Virus record (IMG/VR): IMGVR_UViG_2897369580_000001
DNA: 42,873 nucleotides
Reading direction: 5' to 3' (one strand)
DNA from: a virus
Taxonomy: Duplodnaviria; Heunggongvirae; Uroviricota; Caudoviricetes
Position numbers and translations under genes: made by a program. Positions 21,418 to 35,835 of the stretch are shown here, piece after piece; positions within the stretch are counted from its first letter, which is position 1, and each line of letters starts with the position of its first letter. A model generated the notes under the pieces. The model had not been told where the DNA came from. It worked only from the letters and a program-made list of their open reading frames with translations, and searched no databases.

Positions 21418-22089
21418 TTATACGCAAACGTCGTCTAAATGGTTCTGATAATGATGCAAAGTTGCAAGAAGTGCCACTTCATCAAGTGCTCTCACCGCCT
21501 CTTTCATTCCTACCCAGTGCAGGGAGTATGTTTCGCACCAGGTGGAACGAGAAACCGACAGCATTCCTGCTAGGGTAGATCCGGCCATCTCCTTAAAATC
21601 CTCGCGTTTATTTGCTGCTGCGACCGCCTGCACGGACAACCACACCAACGAAAGCAGGCGCTTAACTACTTTTCTCTGAGTTGACGCGGGGATGTTTCCT
21701 TTATAGCGACTCCAGACAGCCTCACAAATAGCTGTTTGGTGTTTGAATGCCAGGTTACCACCGTAGCAATAACGCAACCACGCTTGCTGACTTGCATCCA
21801 GCGAGTTCACAGAACGCCGCCAGGATGAATCAGCAAATTCAAAATCACTCATCGGCGGCGCGGGGCGACGTCTGCTGAAACTTTCCAGAGCGTAAACTGG
21901 CGTAACCAGAGCATCAACGGTCCGGTCCTCCAGCTGCACACGGTGAATATGTTTGCGTGGGTATGCGTTTTTGTCTGCCGGTGGGTGCTCACACAATGCT
22001 TCCAGTTGCCCCTTAGAACCACCAGACAAATCCCGCAATGCAGCGCGCAGTTTTATGCGGGTATATTCCAATAAATACTCGTTACTCAT
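21418..22089 (-). CDS. Late-gene antitermination protein Q (putative)
   Basis: 223 aa; immediately upstream of late promoter-terminator region and lysis cassette; downstream of nin-like genes. Confidence 0.5.
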   Translation of the reverse strand: MSNEYLLEYTRIKLRAALRDLSGGSKGQLEALCEHPPADKNAYPRKHIHRVQLEDRTVDALVTPVYALESFSRRRPAPPMSDFEFADSSWRRSVNSLDASQQAWLRYCYGGNLAFKHQTAICEAVWSRYKGNIPASTQRKVVKRLLSLVWLSVQAVAAANKREDFKEMAGSTLAGMLSVSRSTWCETYSLHWVGMKEAVRALDEVALLATLHHYQNHLDDVCV

Positions 22090-22382
22090 CAGATAAACTC
22101 CTCATCGCGCCAGATAGCCAGTGTTCTGAAAACTCCCTCAGCGTGCATCAACAACAATGAGTCGTGCTCGTAATCCGTTTTTGTACGTCCGTCGATGGCA
22201 TCGTGACACGCACTGCAGGCGATAGCGCCCTGCATATCGTGAGGTTTGATGGCTGTGCCGCACGTTCCGGCGAGACGATAATGAGCCAGTACGCTGGTTT
22301 CAGGATTGTGATTGCACACACCGGGGATACGCACAGTACAAGCGCGACTGCGTGCAGCTTTTCTCAGGTCGATTTTTTTCAT
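22089..22382 (-). CDS. DUF1364 family protein (YbcO-like, Cys-rich putative nuclease)
   Basis: 97 aa; ...LRKAARSRACTVRIPGVCNHNPETSVLAHYRL...ACSACHD... resembles DLP12 YbcO. Confidence 0.6.
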   Translation of the reverse strand: MKKIDLRKAARSRACTVRIPGVCNHNPETSVLAHYRLAGTCGTAIKPHDMQGAIACSACHDAIDGRTKTDYEHDSLLLMHAEGVFRTLAIWRDEEFI

Positions 22383-22975
22383 GATGTGTAATCCAGCAGC
22401 TGCGCGGCGGCATTTTCAGCGGCCTCCTGAGAGGCAAATGTGCGGAACAAAATATAATTCCACAGCACATCTAAAACGGCTGAATACAGTTGACCGAACT
22501 CAAGATCGTCCATCGCTGCAAACGAGATTGAACGAGGTACGCGCATCAAACTGCCGTCTGGCATCTGATGAACGTCATAAAACCCAGCTTCCATAATCGC
22601 CCATGCGCGAAACGCCTCGAACGACTTCACCGCACTGATACTCCCCGCGCGCTTTTCCGACTCATCGAGAAGATACTGATCAGCCAGCTCTGCCATGACA
22701 TCACCGTGTCCACCGTAATACGCCAGTAACTTAACGTAGCCGTGAACCAGTTCGCGCTCCGCAGGAGAAATAGCCCCTCCGGACGGATGCCAGTAATCAA
22801 AGCCCAGGTTGAGAAGTGAGAAAAATTTACGATGAAACGCGGGATTACGCGCCTGTTTGAAATCTGCATACACAACAGCACCTGGTTTGACTCGTTCAGT
22901 CAACCAGCGTTGCGTGTCTGGTGTCGCGGGTATTAGCGAACCGCCGGATACCCTGATAAATGAATGCTGCGCCAT
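22379..22975 (-). CDS. DUF1367 family protein (YbcN-like), nin-region protein
   Basis: 198 aa; position upstream of the YbcO-like gene as in DLP12; family call from memory. Confidence 0.45.
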   Translation of the reverse strand: MAQHSFIRVSGGSLIPATPDTQRWLTERVKPGAVVYADFKQARNPAFHRKFFSLLNLGFDYWHPSGGAISPAERELVHGYVKLLAYYGGHGDVMAELADQYLLDESEKRAGSISAVKSFEAFRAWAIMEAGFYDVHQMPDGSLMRVPRSISFAAMDDLEFGQLYSAVLDVLWNYILFRTFASQEAAENAAAQLLDYTS

Positions 22976-23052: not shown

Positions 23053-23232
23053 TTACGCGTCAGGGGGTGTAATAGTATATCCAGCTATTTCTGCCAACTC
23101 GAGAAACGCCATCAGGCTGGCAATCCGCTCATCATCGGTCAGAACACGCACACCAACGATGTGTCCGTCCTTACGCTTGATAACAGCCCGGCATGTTTCC
23201 GGTAGTTCGCCTATAGATTCTTGAATATTCAT
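23053..23232 (-). CDS. Small protein under a LexA-box promoter (SOS-inducible; antirepressor candidate)
   Basis: 59 aa from ATG at 23232 with GGGGGGAAG RBS; promoter and LexA box directly upstream. Confidence 0.5.
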   Translation of the reverse strand: MNIQESIGELPETCRAVIKRKDGHIVGVRVLTDDERIASLMAFLELAEIAGYTITPPDA

Positions 23233-23254
23233 GTCTTCCCCCCAATGCCACAAC

Positions 23255-23270
23255 CTGTATATTTATACAG
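23255..23270. promoter_or_regulatory. LexA (SOS) box overlapping a sigma70-like promoter
   Basis: CTGTATATTTATACAG fits CTGT-N8-ACAG with AT-rich spacer; on minus strand -35 ATGACA, 17-nt spacer, -10 TATAAA inside the box. Confidence 0.7.
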
Positions 23271-23383
23271 TATTTTATGGCATTTGTCATAACGCCAAAT
23301 ACAATGAGGGAATAATGAACAATTATATTCACGTCGTGAATTTTATTAAACGGTTTTATAGGGGATTAAACCGTTTATGGTCA

Positions 23384-24025
23384 TTATTTATCACTCCTGT
23401 AAATTGGAATTAACCATTTTCTAATCGTCGACGCTGCAGGTGGGTCAGAGTATTTCGCCACAAAAATACCGGATATGTATTGCACGCCACGCGATAATGG
23501 CGCTGTCGGGTTTTCAGTAAAAAAACGATCAGCCAGTTCAATGGCTTCGCTTTTTAATCTGTGCTGTGGTCGTCCTCCGCCCTTTGTTCCCAGGTATCGC
23601 GCCAGTTGTTTGAAACGGTAGGCGATGATTAACGGTCGCATCATCATATTGAAAAAATCGCGGGCATCGTTGTCAGCGCCTTGCGCTATCAACAGTGCAA
23701 AAAACAGATACGGGATTATGTACACTTCAGGAGATATACGAACCCGTTCACAAGTTGGTGGAGCCAACTCAATAAGTAAGTCAGCCAGCGGATTCCCCTT
23801 TTCTCCACGTTTGTAATAGCGATACAGCGGCCCGATATCAAGTTCACTCACGTCGATTTCAGGATGCCCGGCAACGACTGTACGTATCTCTTCTGCCAGA
23901 GCGTCAAATATTGCCCCGGTCCGTTCAAGATAGAGCCTCCGGGTCGAACCGCGATCATCCAACGCCCGTAACATATCTAACCGGCTAACGAAAGTTTCAG
24001 GCCAGTCCTCATAGAAGGTTTTCAT
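23384..24025 (-). CDS. Hypothetical protein (accessory gene)
   Basis: ATG at 24025 with GAGGT RBS; 213 aa; no family recognised. Confidence 0.55.
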   Translation of the reverse strand: MKTFYEDWPETFVSRLDMLRALDDRGSTRRLYLERTGAIFDALAEEIRTVVAGHPEIDVSELDIGPLYRYYKRGEKGNPLADLLIELAPPTCERVRISPEVYIIPYLFFALLIAQGADNDARDFFNMMMRPLIIAYRFKQLARYLGTKGGGRPQHRLKSEAIELADRFFTENPTAPLSRGVQYISGIFVAKYSDPPAASTIRKWLIPIYRSDK

Positions 24026-24900: not shown

Positions 24901-25389
24901 ATGGCTACCAACCCAAGAGAGCACGCCCGGCGAGTGCTGGACACGTTCTGGTGCGGGCGTGGTTTCCCTGTTGATCCAGCGAAAATTGCTCACGACATGG
25001 GATTAGATGTTTTTATTACCGATCTTCCTGGGAAAGTTTCTGGCGCACTGATTAAACAAAAAGATCAAGATCCAGCGATCTTTCTAAACAGTGATGACAA
25101 CAAAGTTCGTCAACGTTTTTCATGTGGGCATGAGTTGGGGCATTACATCGCCCGGCAAGCATCGCATAGCGATGAATATGAGTACGTTGATTTACGTGGC
25201 GAAACCGCAAGCGCCGGAACGCATCCTGATGAAATTTTTGCAAACAAGTTCGCAGCAGAACTTCTGATGCCGGTAGATGAGGTCAGAAAACTGCACGCTG
25301 ACGGTCAACCAAGTTATATAATGGCGCATTATTTTGGCGTATCTGACGATGCGATGACTTATCGTTTAAAGAACTTGAGGTTGGGGTAA
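24901..25389 (+). CDS. ImmA/IrrE family metallo-endopeptidase (DUF955/COG2856-like)
   Basis: 162 aa; GGAGGAG RBS; HEXXH in ...SCGHELGHYIARQ... typical of ImmA/IrrE zinc peptidases. Confidence 0.8.
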   Translation: MATNPREHARRVLDTFWCGRGFPVDPAKIAHDMGLDVFITDLPGKVSGALIKQKDQDPAIFLNSDDNKVRQRFSCGHELGHYIARQASHSDEYEYVDLRGETASAGTHPDEIFANKFAAELLMPVDEVRKLHADGQPSYIMAHYFGVSDDAMTYRLKNLRLG

Positions 25390-25398
25390 CGCTTTAAA

Positions 25399-26004
25399 AT
25401 GCCATCGGATGACGATTTTAACAGCCGTTTCAAACAGGAAGTAGCACGCAGACTGAAGGATTCCCTCAACCTACACCGTCAGTTAGCAGAAGAGGTTGAG
25501 CCGGAGGACGATGAAACTCCGGTTCAGTCTCCTGACGAAGCTTCACCTCAGCCAAAGGTTTCGCACGCCCCCAAAAAAACGGCTGTCCGTATTCGCGGAA
25601 TAGCCAGAAAAAGAGCTGCCGAAGCTCGCAAAATGGCTGTAGCTGCGTCTAGCAAAAGAATTCCAACTGCTACACCCTCTCAACAAGTCACCCGTACTGA
25701 GAGTAAAATCTTGACCGAGTTCACATCTGTGAAACAGGTGAATTCACTTGATACCGAGCATGAGCGCAAACAACTCAACAACAAAGATTTTGAAGCAGAA
25801 ATCGCTCTAAAAAAACGATACGGGAAATGGTTCCTGATTATCCTTGCTTTCCAACTTCTGATAATGAATGGTGTATTTATTGCCGACGGCGCAGGTAAGC
25901 TGGAATTTGAGGATTTAACACTACAGTTGTACATGGGCGGTACTTTGACAGAGGTATTCGGCCTCGTGCTGGTCGTGACAAAATACCTTTTTAAACGCAA
26001 GTAA
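25399..26004 (+). CDS. Membrane protein with charged N-terminal region and two C-terminal TM helices (putative effector)
   Basis: 201 aa; starts 9 bp after peptidase stop; C-terminal hydrophobic helices; last 72 bp duplicated at 29355..29426. Confidence 0.65.
   Translation: MPSDDDFNSRFKQEVARRLKDSLNLHRQLAEEVEPEDDETPVQSPDEASPQPKVSHAPKKTAVRIRGIARKRAAEARKMAVAASSKRIPTATPSQQVTRTESKILTEFTSVKQVNSLDTEHERKQLNNKDFEAEIALKKRYGKWFLIILAFQLLIMNGVFIADGAGKLEFEDLTLQLYMGGTLTEVFGLVLVVTKYLFKRK
25933..26004 (+). repeat. Direct repeat copy 1 (3' end of membrane-protein gene)
   Basis: 72 bp, about 90% identical to 29355..29426; encodes MGGTLTEVFGLVLVVTKYLFKRK*. Confidence 0.9.
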
Positions 26005-26466: not shown

Positions 26467-27165
26467 TTATATTTTTCCATATTTTTTTCCGTCAAATCGA
26501 ATCATGCCAGGATCAAGAAAATTAATTAAATCGATTAACGCGTGCTGTATTCTGATTAGCCTTTCTTTATAAATTCCGATATCTCTTGTCATATTTATCA
26601 CTTCATTGTTTAAATCTAAAAAAAATGGCTCATTGATAAAGCAATTTTCCTTTGTGAAACTGCCGTAACCTATGCAATCAAATCCAGTATCTGTTGATAT
26701 CAGCATCTTTTCTGCAATAGCTCTCTGCTCTCCTATGAAAAACATAAAATACTGACCAAAGACGTCTGTTTGGATTAATGAGTTAATATTGTTCTGTAAT
26801 CTAATAAACTCCCTCATTTTTTTATTTTTTTCTAGGCTAAGGTATTGAATGTCTATGCGGGCAGCTTCTGTCCATGCAAAAAACTGGGAAAAAAGAAAAA
26901 CAGTATTGTTGATAACATAATCTTGTTGGCGCTTATTCCCATTATGATAAAACTCTTCAATGAACCCCAATTCTAATATATTATAAATACGGCTTTGTAA
27001 GTCTGAAGCTGAGCGAATTAACGGTTCAATATAGTACTGATGTTTTCTCCTTACATCCAGTGATTCATTGAGCTTGTTTATTCTATTCTGATTATAAGTA
27101 GATATAGCAATAGAGATTATAGCTATTGCACCACTAATAAAGCTTGAAATTAATGCCGTACCCAT
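26467..27165 (-). CDS. AT-rich membrane-anchored protein of unknown function (defense/exclusion candidate)
   Basis: 232 aa; N-terminal TM helix ALISSFISGAIAIISIAISTY; Asn/Ile/Lys-rich; sits in visibly AT-rich cassette. Confidence 0.6.
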   Translation of the reverse strand: MGTALISSFISGAIAIISIAISTYNQNRINKLNESLDVRRKHQYYIEPLIRSASDLQSRIYNILELGFIEEFYHNGNKRQQDYVINNTVFLFSQFFAWTEAARIDIQYLSLEKNKKMREFIRLQNNINSLIQTDVFGQYFMFFIGEQRAIAEKMLISTDTGFDCIGYGSFTKENCFINEPFFLDLNNEVINMTRDIGIYKERLIRIQHALIDLINFLDPGMIRFDGKKYGKI

Positions 27166-29450: not shown

Positions 29451-30269
29451 TCAAAATGCTGAATTAGCAACGGATATAGCCGACTTTTTCCCCATTACCA
29501 TCAATTTATCCAGTGTCATACTTCGCAGATTGTCGCTGTGGATCACCAGATACCCTGCCCGCTCAGCGATCTCTTTGAAAGCGTCAAAGGTCATCAGATG
29601 TTCGCCTTTGGCAACATGGCGCATCCCGGTCACTTTTCCATTTTTGATAGTGGTGATAAAAGAAAAATCTGGAATGGTTGGGTGATTTTCATCGAGTAGC
29701 AGGCAGTGGATGTATTCAATCGCCTCTAACATTTGCGTCTGTGACAGTTGTTCTATGTGAGAGACGGCGAAGCGTTGATGAATCATGGTGTAGGCATCGG
29801 GATACATCATGCCTTTCTTGCCGACCAGTATATTAACGGCATCACGCAAGGGAGTACGGTCATCGGTAGTTGTACTCCGCCTCTCTGGACGCTGGCTAAA
29901 ATAACAATCTTCCAGCTTTTCGAAAACTTCCCAGGCCTGTTCTGTTTCCAGCATTTTGGCATGGCGAGCTGCGCCGCGTTCTGTCCAGAGAATGAGGGAT
30001 CGGGTATGTTTAGCAACTGACTGACTATCTGTCAGTCTGTTTTTGAAGTCGCGTAATTCATTACCTTCCAGCTTAAAAAAATGCTTTCCTACGACAAATC
30101 TGGCGATGTTGCGCTTGAAGTTTTGCTGGATACCATTTACTTCCGTGCCATACAAACTGGCAAGCAATTCAGTAGTGATGACGGGAAGTTGGTTATGATG
30201 TAGCGGAGAAAGGGATTCCGCAGATATTTGGACTGTCATCGCAGTGGCCTCACTTAGTGTTTTTTTCAT
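29451..30269 (-). CDS. Phage antirepressor-like protein (ORF6N/Ant N-terminal-like domain)
   Basis: 272 aa from ATG at 30269; N-terminal ...LPVITTELLASLYGTEVNGIQQNFKRNIARFVVGKHFFKL... resembles Ant/ORF6N regions. Confidence 0.55.
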   Translation of the reverse strand: MKKTLSEATAMTVQISAESLSPLHHNQLPVITTELLASLYGTEVNGIQQNFKRNIARFVVGKHFFKLEGNELRDFKNRLTDSQSVAKHTRSLILWTERGAARHAKMLETEQAWEVFEKLEDCYFSQRPERRSTTTDDRTPLRDAVNILVGKKGMMYPDAYTMIHQRFAVSHIEQLSQTQMLEAIEYIHCLLLDENHPTIPDFSFITTIKNGKVTGMRHVAKGEHLMTFDAFKEIAERAGYLVIHSDNLRSMTLDKLMVMGKKSAISVANSAF

Positions 30270-30301
30270 CACCACCAGCGACGCCAATCATCTGGTGGTG
30301 A
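30269..30301. promoter_or_regulatory. 10-bp inverted repeat abutting antirepressor start codon
   Basis: TCACCACCAG-N13-CTGGTGGTGA; 3' arm contains the probable RBS. Confidence 0.4.
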
Positions 30302-30511
30302 GCTGTGCAGGGTTGGCGTAACCGGCTAAGTGAACCCGGCGCTTCCACAGAAGCCCCCACACAGCCCACCATAATGCGAATGTGGCCGTGCCTAACACAT
30401 AAAAAAACCGCTAACGCGGCTATGCGTCACTTAGATATCCGGGACGCCAATCCCGGCAACCGATTTTGCGGCTGCGCGGAAACTATAGCCCCGGACTTTT
30501 TCTAAGTCAAT

Positions 30512-30733
30512 TCAATCAACTTCAAACCTCCGGTGTTCACATTCCATACACTCAACGGGAACATCATCGCGATGCAAGTCCACATATCCGACCCGCTTAT
30601 ACAACTCAATAATGTCCGGTAACGTGACCAGATGTTTTTCCGGTTCCAACACCTCAGCCCGGGTTACTTTGTAATCTGAAATATAGAGCACTATCCGCCC
30701 GTTCCGTGGTAACTCCAGTTTATCGCCAAACAT
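30512..30733 (-). CDS. Hypothetical small protein
   Basis: 73-aa ORF co-oriented with early-right operon. Confidence 0.35.
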   Translation of the reverse strand: MFGDKLELPRNGRIVLYISDYKVTRAEVLEPEKHLVTLPDIIELYKRVGYVDLHRDDVPVECMECEHRRFEVD

Positions 30734-35323: not shown

Positions 35324-35348
35324 ATGGACTCCTTGTGTCCGCGTCATC

Positions 35349-35388
35349 ATTACAAACAATAACTGTAATTACAAATTATATTTGCAAT
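35349..35388. promoter_or_regulatory. Operator cluster in divergent immunity promoter region
   Basis: ATTACA-N9-TGTAAT (35349..35369) overlapping ATTACAAAT-N3-ATTTGCAAT (35368..35388). Confidence 0.5.
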
Positions 35389-35421
35389 GCTCCCTACAAT
35401 TAAACCTTGTATCCTTACGGT

Positions 35422-35835
35422 ATGAACACAAAAACGAAAAACATGGCTTTTGCTAGCCGACTACAACGGATTCTAAAAGACTTAGGCTGGTCTCAATCTG
35501 AGTTAGCTCGCCATATTGGGGTTACGGCTCAATCAGTTCAGGCATGGTGTAATGGGGTAACTCCAAGAAAAGATAAATTAGACAAGCTAGCAAAAGTGAC
35601 CGGATACCCTGTTCATTTTTTCTTCATGAATGAAGGGGAATATTTGGATGAATCCACACTACACCCGGGTAATTACAATCAAGAACTAACCCCGCAAGAA
35701 CAGGCTCTACTGCAACTATTCAGAGGACTGCCTGAGAGCGAAAAAAATAAATTAATCAATGAGCTAAAAGAAAAAAGAGAGCACTTCGATCTACTGCTAA
35801 AAGAACTACTTGAAGCCAAAAACCAGACAAAATAG
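35422..35835 (+). CDS. Prophage repressor, DicA-like (N-terminal XRE HTH, no S24 peptidase domain)
   Basis: N-terminal HTH SQSELARHIGVTAQSVQAWCNG; C-terminal ...LTPQEQALLQLFRGLPESEKNKL...LLKELLEAKNQTK resembles DicA C-terminus. Confidence 0.7.
   Translation: MNTKTKNMAFASRLQRILKDLGWSQSELARHIGVTAQSVQAWCNGVTPRKDKLDKLAKVTGYPVHFFFMNEGEYLDESTLHPGNYNQELTPQEQALLQLFRGLPESEKNKLINELKEKREHFDLLLKELLEAKNQTK

Follow-up and report, generated by a model that had tools for sequence, protein, structure and literature searches.

The 42,873-nt viral sequence IMGVR_UViG_2897369580_000001 (Caudoviricetes; hereafter the window, meaning the whole stretch analysed) is a prophage of Escherichia coli O25b:H4-ST131, and hosts a predicted LexA operator placed immediately upstream of a minus-strand open reading frame (ORF) encoding a protein of 59 amino acids (aa). 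Operator and ORF probably constitute an SOS induction module of the type described in Gifsy phages. According to this view, in the lysogen host LexA would bind the operator at 23253-23272 and, since the operator overlaps the -10 element and the start region of a minus-strand promoter, would keep the 59-aa gene silent. Upon DNA damage, RecA-stimulated self-cleavage of LexA would allow the promoter to fire and the 59-aa protein to accumulate. The latter would bind the 130-aa prophage repressor, a non-self-cleaving protein made of a helix-turn-helix (HTH) domain only, and release it from its operators; the early operons would then open, and lytic development ensue. The same transcript would probably continue into the genes DUF1367/irsA, YbcO and Q. 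The scenario is supported in silico by the quality, uniqueness and conservation of the operator, the family membership of the ORF product, synteny, the class of the repressor, and the family-wide linkage of LexA boxes to ORFs of this type. We infer LexA binding in vivo, usage of the promoter, the interaction between antirepressor and repressor, and read-through to Q. The elements on which the scenario is built are the following.

23253-23272, no strand assigned: predicted LexA (SOS) operator, 20-mer ACCTGTATATTTATACAGTA, with the palindromic core CTGT-N8-ACAG at 23255-23270, CTGTATATTTATACAG
23053-23232, minus strand: 59-aa protein of the GfoA/FsoA/Rem family (PHROG 340), predicted SOS-induced antirepressor, ATG at 23232, RefSeq WP_001025459.1
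23235-23243, minus strand: Shine-Dalgarno sequence GGGGGGAAG, read from the sequence, of which GGGGGAAA is retained in the alleles
23262-23267, minus strand: putative -10 hexamer TATAAA, within the LexA box, with a 17-nt spacer to the -35; the alleles carry either TATAAA or TATATA
23285-23290, minus strand: putative -35 hexamer ATGACA, read from the sequence, invariant in three alleles, the adjoining spacer having diverged
35443-35835, plus strand: prophage repressor, 130 aa, HTH_3 only (Pfam), GtgR/DicA class, predicted target of the antirepressor

An SOS box of the CTGT-N8-ACAG type had been placed at 23255-23270 in the initial annotation, and the sequence is exactly as described there. The bare core is not significant by itself, being found once in the window vs 0.38 occurrences expected, and at least once in 34 of 100 shuffles. 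The full 20-mer ACCTGTATATTTATACAGTA, in turn, differs from the consensus TACTGTATATATATACAGTA at three positions, and 20-mers with at most three mismatches from the LexA consensus occurred in none of the 100 shuffles. The operator has the TACTGT-(AT)4-ACAGTA form typical of the E. coli LexA regulon. Scoring against a LexA matrix, a check proposed along with the box, was performed by a symmetrised weight matrix derived from an approximate list of 27 E. coli LexA operators, and the values obtained are therefore approximate. The operator scores 24.7 bits, within the range of known operators and, when the 27 known sites are scored leave-one-out (median 18.5 bits), above 25 of them; its heterology index, calculated by the same matrix, is 2.44, the 27 known sites spanning 1.18-9.71. 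The next-best LexA-like site in the 42.9-kb window reaches 10.4 bits, and the best site found in 200 Markov surrogates 20.5 bits (mean 11.2). Compared with known sites, the runner-up and the surrogates, the element thus qualifies as a top-tier predicted LexA operator, and as the sole one in 42.9 kb. The operator is retained in the diverged alleles L003 and L005. Alignment of the promoter plus ORF region revealed that the alleles keep the ATGACA hexamer and both half-sites, and have diverged in the spacer and the 5' untranslated region; one allele carries a perfect consensus box, TACTGTATATATATACAG. In one natural allele (L006, at about 5965-5985 of that locus) a 2-bp TA deletion within the box has changed the core into CTGT-N6-ACAG. 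The shortened box should bind LexA more weakly; the prophage may be deregulated or defective, or the deletion may stem from an error in the assembly.

The box ends 21 nt before the ATG of the 59-aa ORF. The ribosome binding site and the ORF reported in the initial annotation are both in place, as GGGGGGAAG precedes an ATG at 23232, the frame ends at 23053, and the gene is annotated in RefSeq. Translation from an upstream TTG is excluded, because a 2-nt indel between box and ATG in the alleles shows that the stretch is non-coding. Two other E. coli alleles of the ORF exhibit 73-76% identity at the protein and ~81% at the DNA level. The synonymous divergence (dS) is 0.63-0.71, and the ratio of nonsynonymous to synonymous divergence (dN/dS) is 0.17-0.19, which indicates that the ORF is a real gene under purifying selection. 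The product has no match in Pfam. It matches PHROG 340 (E 1.6e-20), a family labelled "unknown function", and a hidden Markov model (HMM) of its own family (E 1.3e-27). Only seven close relatives were found by word-indexed protein searches, and only three matches by tblastn against phage records; an exhaustive profile search retrieved 126 cluster representatives, mostly stand-alone proteins of 55-70 aa. Stand-alone clusters of the PHROG 340 family number ~100, and 59 aa is a typical length among them. The family pattern is LP..GRVVI...NG.V.S.RVL.DDEHIASL..F.ELA..AGY, and the 59-aa protein conforms to it, being a small stand-alone protein (~55-85 aa in the family) with the hairpin-helix core G-R-V-V..N-G..D-E-H-I-A-S-L..E-L-A..A-G-Y. 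Named members come from Salmonella, Pseudescherichia, Edaphovirga, Rouxiella, Pantoea and Winslowiella. Some members correspond to the C-terminal domain of proteins of 176-294 aa, the N-termini of which are of the ORF6N, Bro-N/KilA-N-like or P22-AR-like type. The AlphaFold2 model of the 59-aa protein (predicted local distance difference test score 88.9) features a short helix, a beta-hairpin (residues 16-30) and a second helix (residues 40-49). Comparison of the model with the Protein Data Bank by Foldseek was uninformative, yielding no meaningful match (best E ~1). The top match of the family profile is a protein of 5,655 aa (P0008), in which 24 stretches fit only the beta-hairpin half (profile positions 5-27); this is probably an unrelated repeat protein.

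The functional assignment stems from the finding that PHROG 340 contains three experimentally proven antirepressors, the orthologue of GfoA, FsoA and Rem, since all three have been demonstrated in experiments to relieve repression by regulators of the GtgR/GfoR/DicA type (PMC3121763, PMC10448788). Exact-DNA searches for gfoA in viral contigs gave no result. Megablast searches of phage records with primers led to the orthologue in Salmonella phage SEN34, where the published gfoA primers match a small ORF lying between dinI and irsA. This ORF starts with TTG AGT AAT TCA GCT TTG CAA AAG and encodes a protein ending in RRLGYRVTPPSD, which matches PHROG 340 (E 6.2e-21), is assigned to the family profile at 96.6% by hhalign, and is 33% identical to the 59-aa protein over 51 aa (BLASTP, E 5e-10). 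FsoA was identified as the product of the Fels-1 ORF 3494-3730 (minus strand), as the published fsoA primers encode its first (MNSQQMM) and last (EAGIRFEEISNVG) residues; it matches both the family HMM (E 1.1e-14) and PHROG 340 (E 1.1e-26). Rem, encoded by the cryptic prophage Qin, relieves repression by DicA (Ragunathan et al. 2023, PMC10448788), and matches PHROG 340 with an E value of 4.4e-21 and the family profile at 93.6% probability (hhalign). A strong LexA-like site, CACTGTATTTATTTACAGTA (23.2 bits), resides in Fels-1 within the repressor gene fsoR (L060, 5796-5815).

Linkage of family members to LexA boxes is not a peculiarity of the window. By using a sub-alignment of divergent members (~35-42% identical to the 59-aa protein) 48 IMG/VR loci were collected, which encode, after deduplication, 31 distinct proteins. 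For 28 of the 31, a LexA box scoring at least 16.7 bits is found upstream, its end being 15-55 nt away from the start codon; the mode is about -20, and the box in the window ends at -21. The boxed loci feature 22 different box sequences, and the remaining 369 kb of these loci contain only five other LexA sites of at least 14 bits. Among the three exceptions, one is cut by the contig end, its duplicates being boxed, and in another a 25.9-bit box is located at -170. The layout of these loci, anchored on the box, includes a -35 TTTGCA, a TATA(T/A)A motif abutting the box, the box, a Shine-Dalgarno sequence and the start codon. In the lineage of the 59-aa protein the conserved hexamers would place the -10 within the box. 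In either layout LexA would occlude the promoter or the start region.

The order of the genes found downstream from the box points to the same conclusion.

22379-22975, minus strand: DUF1367 protein (Pfam; YbcN/NinB-like), homologue of Gifsy irsA, next gene of the predicted operon
22089-22382, minus strand: DUF1364/YbcO, the start codon overlapping the DUF1367 stop codon
21418-22089, minus strand: antiterminator Q, the start codon overlapping the YbcO stop codon

The LexA box is followed by dinI, gftA/gfoA, irsA, NinG and Q in Gifsy-2 and SEN34, and by the 59-aa ORF, the irsA homologue, YbcO and Q in the window. The DUF1367 protein is 56% identical to the Gifsy-2 irsA product STM1020 (E 5e-82). 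Comparison of the gene orders indicates that the 59-aa ORF occupies the Gifsy antirepressor slot, in the absence of dinI. The slot does not belong to the immunity region: it lies between the replication genes and Q, ~12 kb away from the repressor. The initial annotation had considered that transcription might proceed into YbcN, YbcO and Q, and indeed no terminator-like site was detected on the minus strand from the 59-aa ORF to Q, the 77-nt gap preceding DUF1367 included. Since stop and start codons of the three genes also overlap, a LexA-controlled transcript could deliver Q.

The closest precedent is thus provided by GfoA and GfhA of Gifsy-1 and Gifsy-3 (Lemire et al. 2011, PMC3121763), LexA-controlled proteins which are encoded in the same genomic slot and induce their own prophages. 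GfoA and the 59-aa protein share membership in PHROG 340 and the location directly upstream of irsA/DUF1367 and Q. In both systems the end of the LexA box is ~20 nt away from the start codon of the first gene, and the repressor is a short, non-cleavable protein of the GtgR/GfoR/DicA type. There are differences as well. The prophage described here, a myovirus-like element of E. coli ST131, is devoid of dinI, and the antirepressor gene is the first after the box rather than the second; the protein is shorter (59 vs ~82 aa) and starts with ATG rather than TTG; the -10 is apparently inside the box, and not at its left edge. Rem resembles the 59-aa protein in family and location upstream of the Q-region genes, and acts on a DicA-class repressor, but has no LexA box, is larger (83 aa), and carries an extra N-terminal hairpin-like segment. 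FsoA belongs to the same family, and its target GtgR is 33% identical to the window repressor. It differs because encoded in the left operon, under the control of the phage repressor rather than LexA, and is nearer to an unboxed 73-aa paralogue found in the window (see below) than to the boxed 59-aa gene. GftA of Gifsy-2 (PHROG 4847) is comparable in position (dinI-gftA-irsA), and in the LexA control and function predicted for the 59-aa gene.

The initial annotation had envisaged a LexA-controlled antirepressor on the model of Tum of phage 186. The notion of an antirepressor preceded by a LexA box is strengthened by the kinship with GfoA, FsoA and Rem, but the parallel must be drawn with GfoA and GfhA. 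Tum is a protein of ~146 aa with a DinI-like C-terminal half (PMC3121763). Judging from this description, the 59-aa protein, which lacks the DinI-like half, is set apart from Tum, and DinI-like sequences are missing from the window altogether. Tum and AntC of phage N15 resemble the system proposed here in that LexA represses an antirepressor which inactivates a non-cleavable repressor. No member was found by the family HMM in the N15 record between positions 20000 and 46375.

The repressor is plausibly of the kind inactivated in this way. The initial annotation was right in describing it as a DicA-like protein lacking an S24 autocleavage domain: HTH_3 is the sole domain found, full-length identity is 33% with GtgR (E 5e-23) and 31% with DicA (E 1e-15), and no S24 domain was revealed in the window by tblastn, for which two S24 repressors and one UmuD-like protein served as queries. 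Repressors of the GtgR/GfoR/DicA class are not cleaved, and are inactivated by small antirepressors (Lemire et al., PMC3121763). For GfoR and GfoA, Lemire et al. observed complexes of A2B2 composition. The intergenic stretch separating the repressor gene from the cro-like gene (35348-35389) includes overlapping ATTACAAA and TTGCAAT-type repeats, with a 19-nt direct repeat and a 22-nt palindrome, which likely represent the operators of the 130-aa repressor. A relative found in an E. coli isolate from pig encodes an identical repressor (WP_000853106.1) and the boxed small ORF (the 76% allele, with a box of 25.2 bits); neither the ORF6N protein nor the 73-aa paralogue nor the M78 peptidase described below is found there. 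The boxed ORF is the only such component maintained there, and may therefore be regarded as the component travelling with the repressor.

The region upstream of the 59-aa gene is more complex than outlined above, and includes two additional features.

23322-23349, minus strand: alternative sigma-70-like promoter P1, TTAATA-16-TATAAT, detected by consensus scan, 60 nt upstream, with the palindrome ATTCACGACGTGAAT in the spacer
23347-23377, minus strand: hairpin with a 10-bp stem and no U-tract, located right past the end of the 213-aa ORF lying upstream, and ahead of the promoter region

The operator overlaps the proposed -10 hexamer, and the conserved ATGACA is found 17 nt upstream; yet, the hexamer is imperfect, and a stronger promoter lies upstream. 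Transcripts initiated at P1 would cross the LexA box, and LexA may control either the box-overlapping candidate or P1. The 75-nt segment encompassing the hairpin has a folding energy of -13 kcal/mol (z -3.2). The other alleles have not kept the stem; terminator-like palindromes also precede the LexA box in Gifsy phages (PMC3121763). The arms of the palindrome ATTCACGACGTGAAT (23327-23341) are kept in the alleles. The idea that the palindrome is an operator of the repressor found no support, as it is unlike the ATTACAA-type repeats of the immunity region. On the opposite strand, positions 23315-23413 correspond to an unannotated ORF of 32 codons, MNNYIHVVNFIKRFYRGLNRLWSLFITPVNWN, preceded by a good Shine-Dalgarno sequence, GAGGGAATA, and divergent from the LexA promoter. 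Length, frame and a hydrophobic C-terminal half are retained in diverged alleles (MSNYIHRVNLIKRFIPGKNGLWLLFFISINMG), and the ORF could encode a small membrane peptide or toxin, or be a coincidence.

Several observations weigh against the hypothesis that the locus is a Gifsy-type module, in addition to the approximate nature of the matrix scores. The near-consensus promoter proposed in the initial annotation is there as far as hexamers, spacing and overlap with the box are concerned, but the consensus scan did not pick up ATGACA-17-TATAAA, as the -10 hexamer does not have the highly conserved T at position 6, and P1 is a better match to sigma-70 promoters. The presence of P1 upstream implies that LexA could act as a roadblock, or that repression may be partial. 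The absence of DinI-like sequences from the window (best tblastn match, E 0.3) is a departure from Gifsy phages, in which dinI is the opening gene of the operon. Membership in PHROG 340 guarantees neither SOS control nor action on the cognate repressor. No LexA box was found at K-12 rem. As to FsoA, its gene is under the Fels-1 repressor and the protein inactivates GtgR, the repressor of Gifsy-2; Fels-1 can be induced in its absence (PMC3121763). GftA, the Gifsy-2 protein encoded in the same slot, is a doubtful homologue: reciprocal profile matches are weak (E 0.015-0.23), hhalign values range from 3 to 13%, the register is inconsistent between comparisons, and BLASTP of GftA against the family gave no match. 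No gftA sequence was found in the window either. Finally, literature searches for induction data on the ST131 prophage or the phage vB_EcoM-705R4 gave nothing useful.

Alternative scenarios must take into account other components of the prophage.

30512-30733, minus strand: 73-aa stand-alone PHROG 340 paralogue with a Cys-rich tail (ECMECEH) and no LexA box, in the early rightward operon
30291-30488, minus strand: isrK/C4 antisense RNA/a1b1 target element, immediately preceding the ORF6N gene
29451-30239, minus strand: ORF6N-domain AnrP/Ant-like protein (Pfam ORF6N, E 8.9e-22)
24901-25389, plus strand: CapP/ImmA/IrrE-like M78 metallopeptidase (Pfam Peptidase_M78, E 7.7e-18; PADLOC CapP, E 2.4e-25)

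The 73-aa paralogue (PHROG 340, E 3.5e-21; family HMM, E 1.3e-20) lies just upstream of the isrK/C4 element, which is recognized by Rfam as isrK (80.4 bits), C4 (75.2 bits) and c4-a1b1 (52.9 bits), each exceeding the gathering score. Residues 197-238 of the ORF6N protein (29526-29651) correspond to a third copy of the PHROG 340 domain (E 4.2e-12), and the protein is 37% identical to the 59-aa protein over 38 aa (BLASTP, E 4e-07). The isrK/C4 element and the ORF6N gene look like the RNA-gated antirepressor modules c4-icd-ant (immI) of P1 and isrK-orf45-anrP of Gifsy-1 (PMC4825925), in which a larger Ant-like gene is similarly found behind isrK/C4/a1b1 elements; these modules would be gated by RNA rather than LexA, and are separate from the 59-aa gene.

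It is conceivable, though unlikely, that the LexA promoter mainly drives the DUF1367-YbcO-Q genes, so that SOS would license late gene expression, and that the 59-aa protein acts chiefly in trans, on repressors of co-resident prophages rather than on its own. This is in keeping with the uninterrupted stretch leading to Q and the overlapping codons of the three downstream genes, with the ~6-kb accessory island parting Q from the early operon, and with the precedent of FsoA, which belongs to the family and targets a non-cognate repressor (PMC3121763); moreover, alleles of the ORF are 24% apart in protein sequence, the repressor being identical. Yet, GfoA and GfhA, LexA-controlled and lodged in the same slot, induce their own prophages (PMC3121763), and in the reduced relative no family member other than the box-ORF pair accompanies the identical repressor. 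One role would not preclude the other. Much less probable is that the palindrome is a chance AT-rich sequence or a (TA)n tract unrelated to LexA, a view we regard as scarcely tenable. The frequency of the bare core in shuffled sequences (34%), the TA-rich centre, and the 2-bp TA slippage in one allele would fit with it. In contrast, the full 20-mer outscores all of the 200 surrogates, half-sites are kept across diverged alleles, and independent boxes are found at the same distance in 28 of the 31 distinct relatives.

Induction may alternatively be ascribed to one of the other candidate proteins. The hypothesis that the ORF6N/AnrP-like protein, freed via the isrK/C4 RNA switch, is the real inducer, and the 59-aa protein is redundant or a decayed fragment, appears very doubtful. 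The match to a PHROG family annotated as "anti-repressor" (E 2.7e-163), the Rfam isrK/C4 elements located directly upstream, the C-terminal domain shared with the 59-aa protein, and the induction of the Gifsy-1 prophage upon expression of AnrP (PMC4825925) all speak in its favour, but no LexA site is found nearby (the runner-up in the window scores only 10.4 bits), the relative encoding the identical repressor does not have this protein, and the 59-aa ORF shows purifying selection as well as the typical stand-alone length. Equally hard to sustain, and a shade more improbable, is that the M78 metallopeptidase senses damage and cleaves the HTH repressor, as in the ImmR/ImmA, DdrO/IrrE and CapH/CapP pairs, the boxed ORF being secondary. 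The Pfam and PADLOC matches to Peptidase_M78 and CapP are in line with this, and the architecture of the repressor, an HTH followed by a C-terminal helical region, is typical of the substrates of such proteases. However, the gene does not adjoin the repressor, being located ~10 kb apart in a variable accessory island; the peptidase is missing from relatives having the identical repressor and the boxed ORF, and Gifsy repressors of the same class are not cleaved on induction (PMC3121763).

The locus is best viewed, on the well-supported ground of sequence comparisons, as a further case of the LexA-controlled small antirepressors of Gifsy type, the nearest characterised relatives being GfoA/GfhA, FsoA and Rem. 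It will not surprise specialists, as the mechanism was established in 2011 for Gifsy phages. What is particular here, as far as can be read from the DNA, is the absence of dinI, and the presence in the same prophage of two further copies of the domain under other controls. Because the locus resides in ST131 genomes, the hypothesis makes a prediction on the response of a prophage to DNA-damaging antibiotics in a pandemic multidrug-resistant clone. PHROG 340, so far a family of "unknown function", gains a functional label from the three proven antirepressors and the LexA box found in 28 of its 31 distinct viral members analysed, and the fixed distance of the box, together with the proven members, makes genes of this family easy to annotate as SOS-induction switches. 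The data also suggest that many large "Ant" proteins bind the repressor through their C-terminal domain. A broader interpretation, which is speculative and on the whole doubtful, is that the ~45-residue PHROG 340 module is a general repressor-targeting unit of enterobacterial prophage antirepressors, either stand-alone or C-terminal in Ant/AnrP proteins of ORF6N, Bro-N/KilA-N and P22-AR type. The prophage described here would use three copies of the unit, under LexA, the early operon and the isrK/C4 gate, respectively, as a multi-input circuit for induction and crosstalk, and the LexA promoter might be the main driver of Q. If this last point were true, SOS would license late genes in parallel to derepression.

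The locus was found in 450 of the 5,426 complete E. coli genomes, always in the chromosome, and in 415 of the 450 at an identity of at least 99%. The best matches are O25b:H4-ST131 genomes, for instance those of EC958 and JJ1886; a 1.3-kb segment around the box is 100% identical in these and many other strains. In EC958 (locus L001, the coordinates of which are converted into window coordinates by adding 2899) the element adjoins tRNA-Leu/Cys/Gly, pgsA and uvrC, and includes, in order, the integrase, the immunity region, the replication genes, the accessory island, the Q-lysis block and structural genes of myovirus type. The accessory island, which separates Q from the early operon over ~6 kb, carries genes on the opposite strand. 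Among these, the M78 gene is followed by one encoding a 201-aa protein with a hydrophobic C-terminus, the two together spanning 24901-26004 (plus strand). No HTH partner was detected adjoining the pair, and the island hosting it is replaced by genes of the GmrSD/DUF262 type in related prophages. A low-complexity AT-rich island encodes a 232-aa protein (26467-27165, minus strand), which has a weak PADLOC match to RTasTM (DRT) (E 1.8e-05) and may be a defence-related moron.

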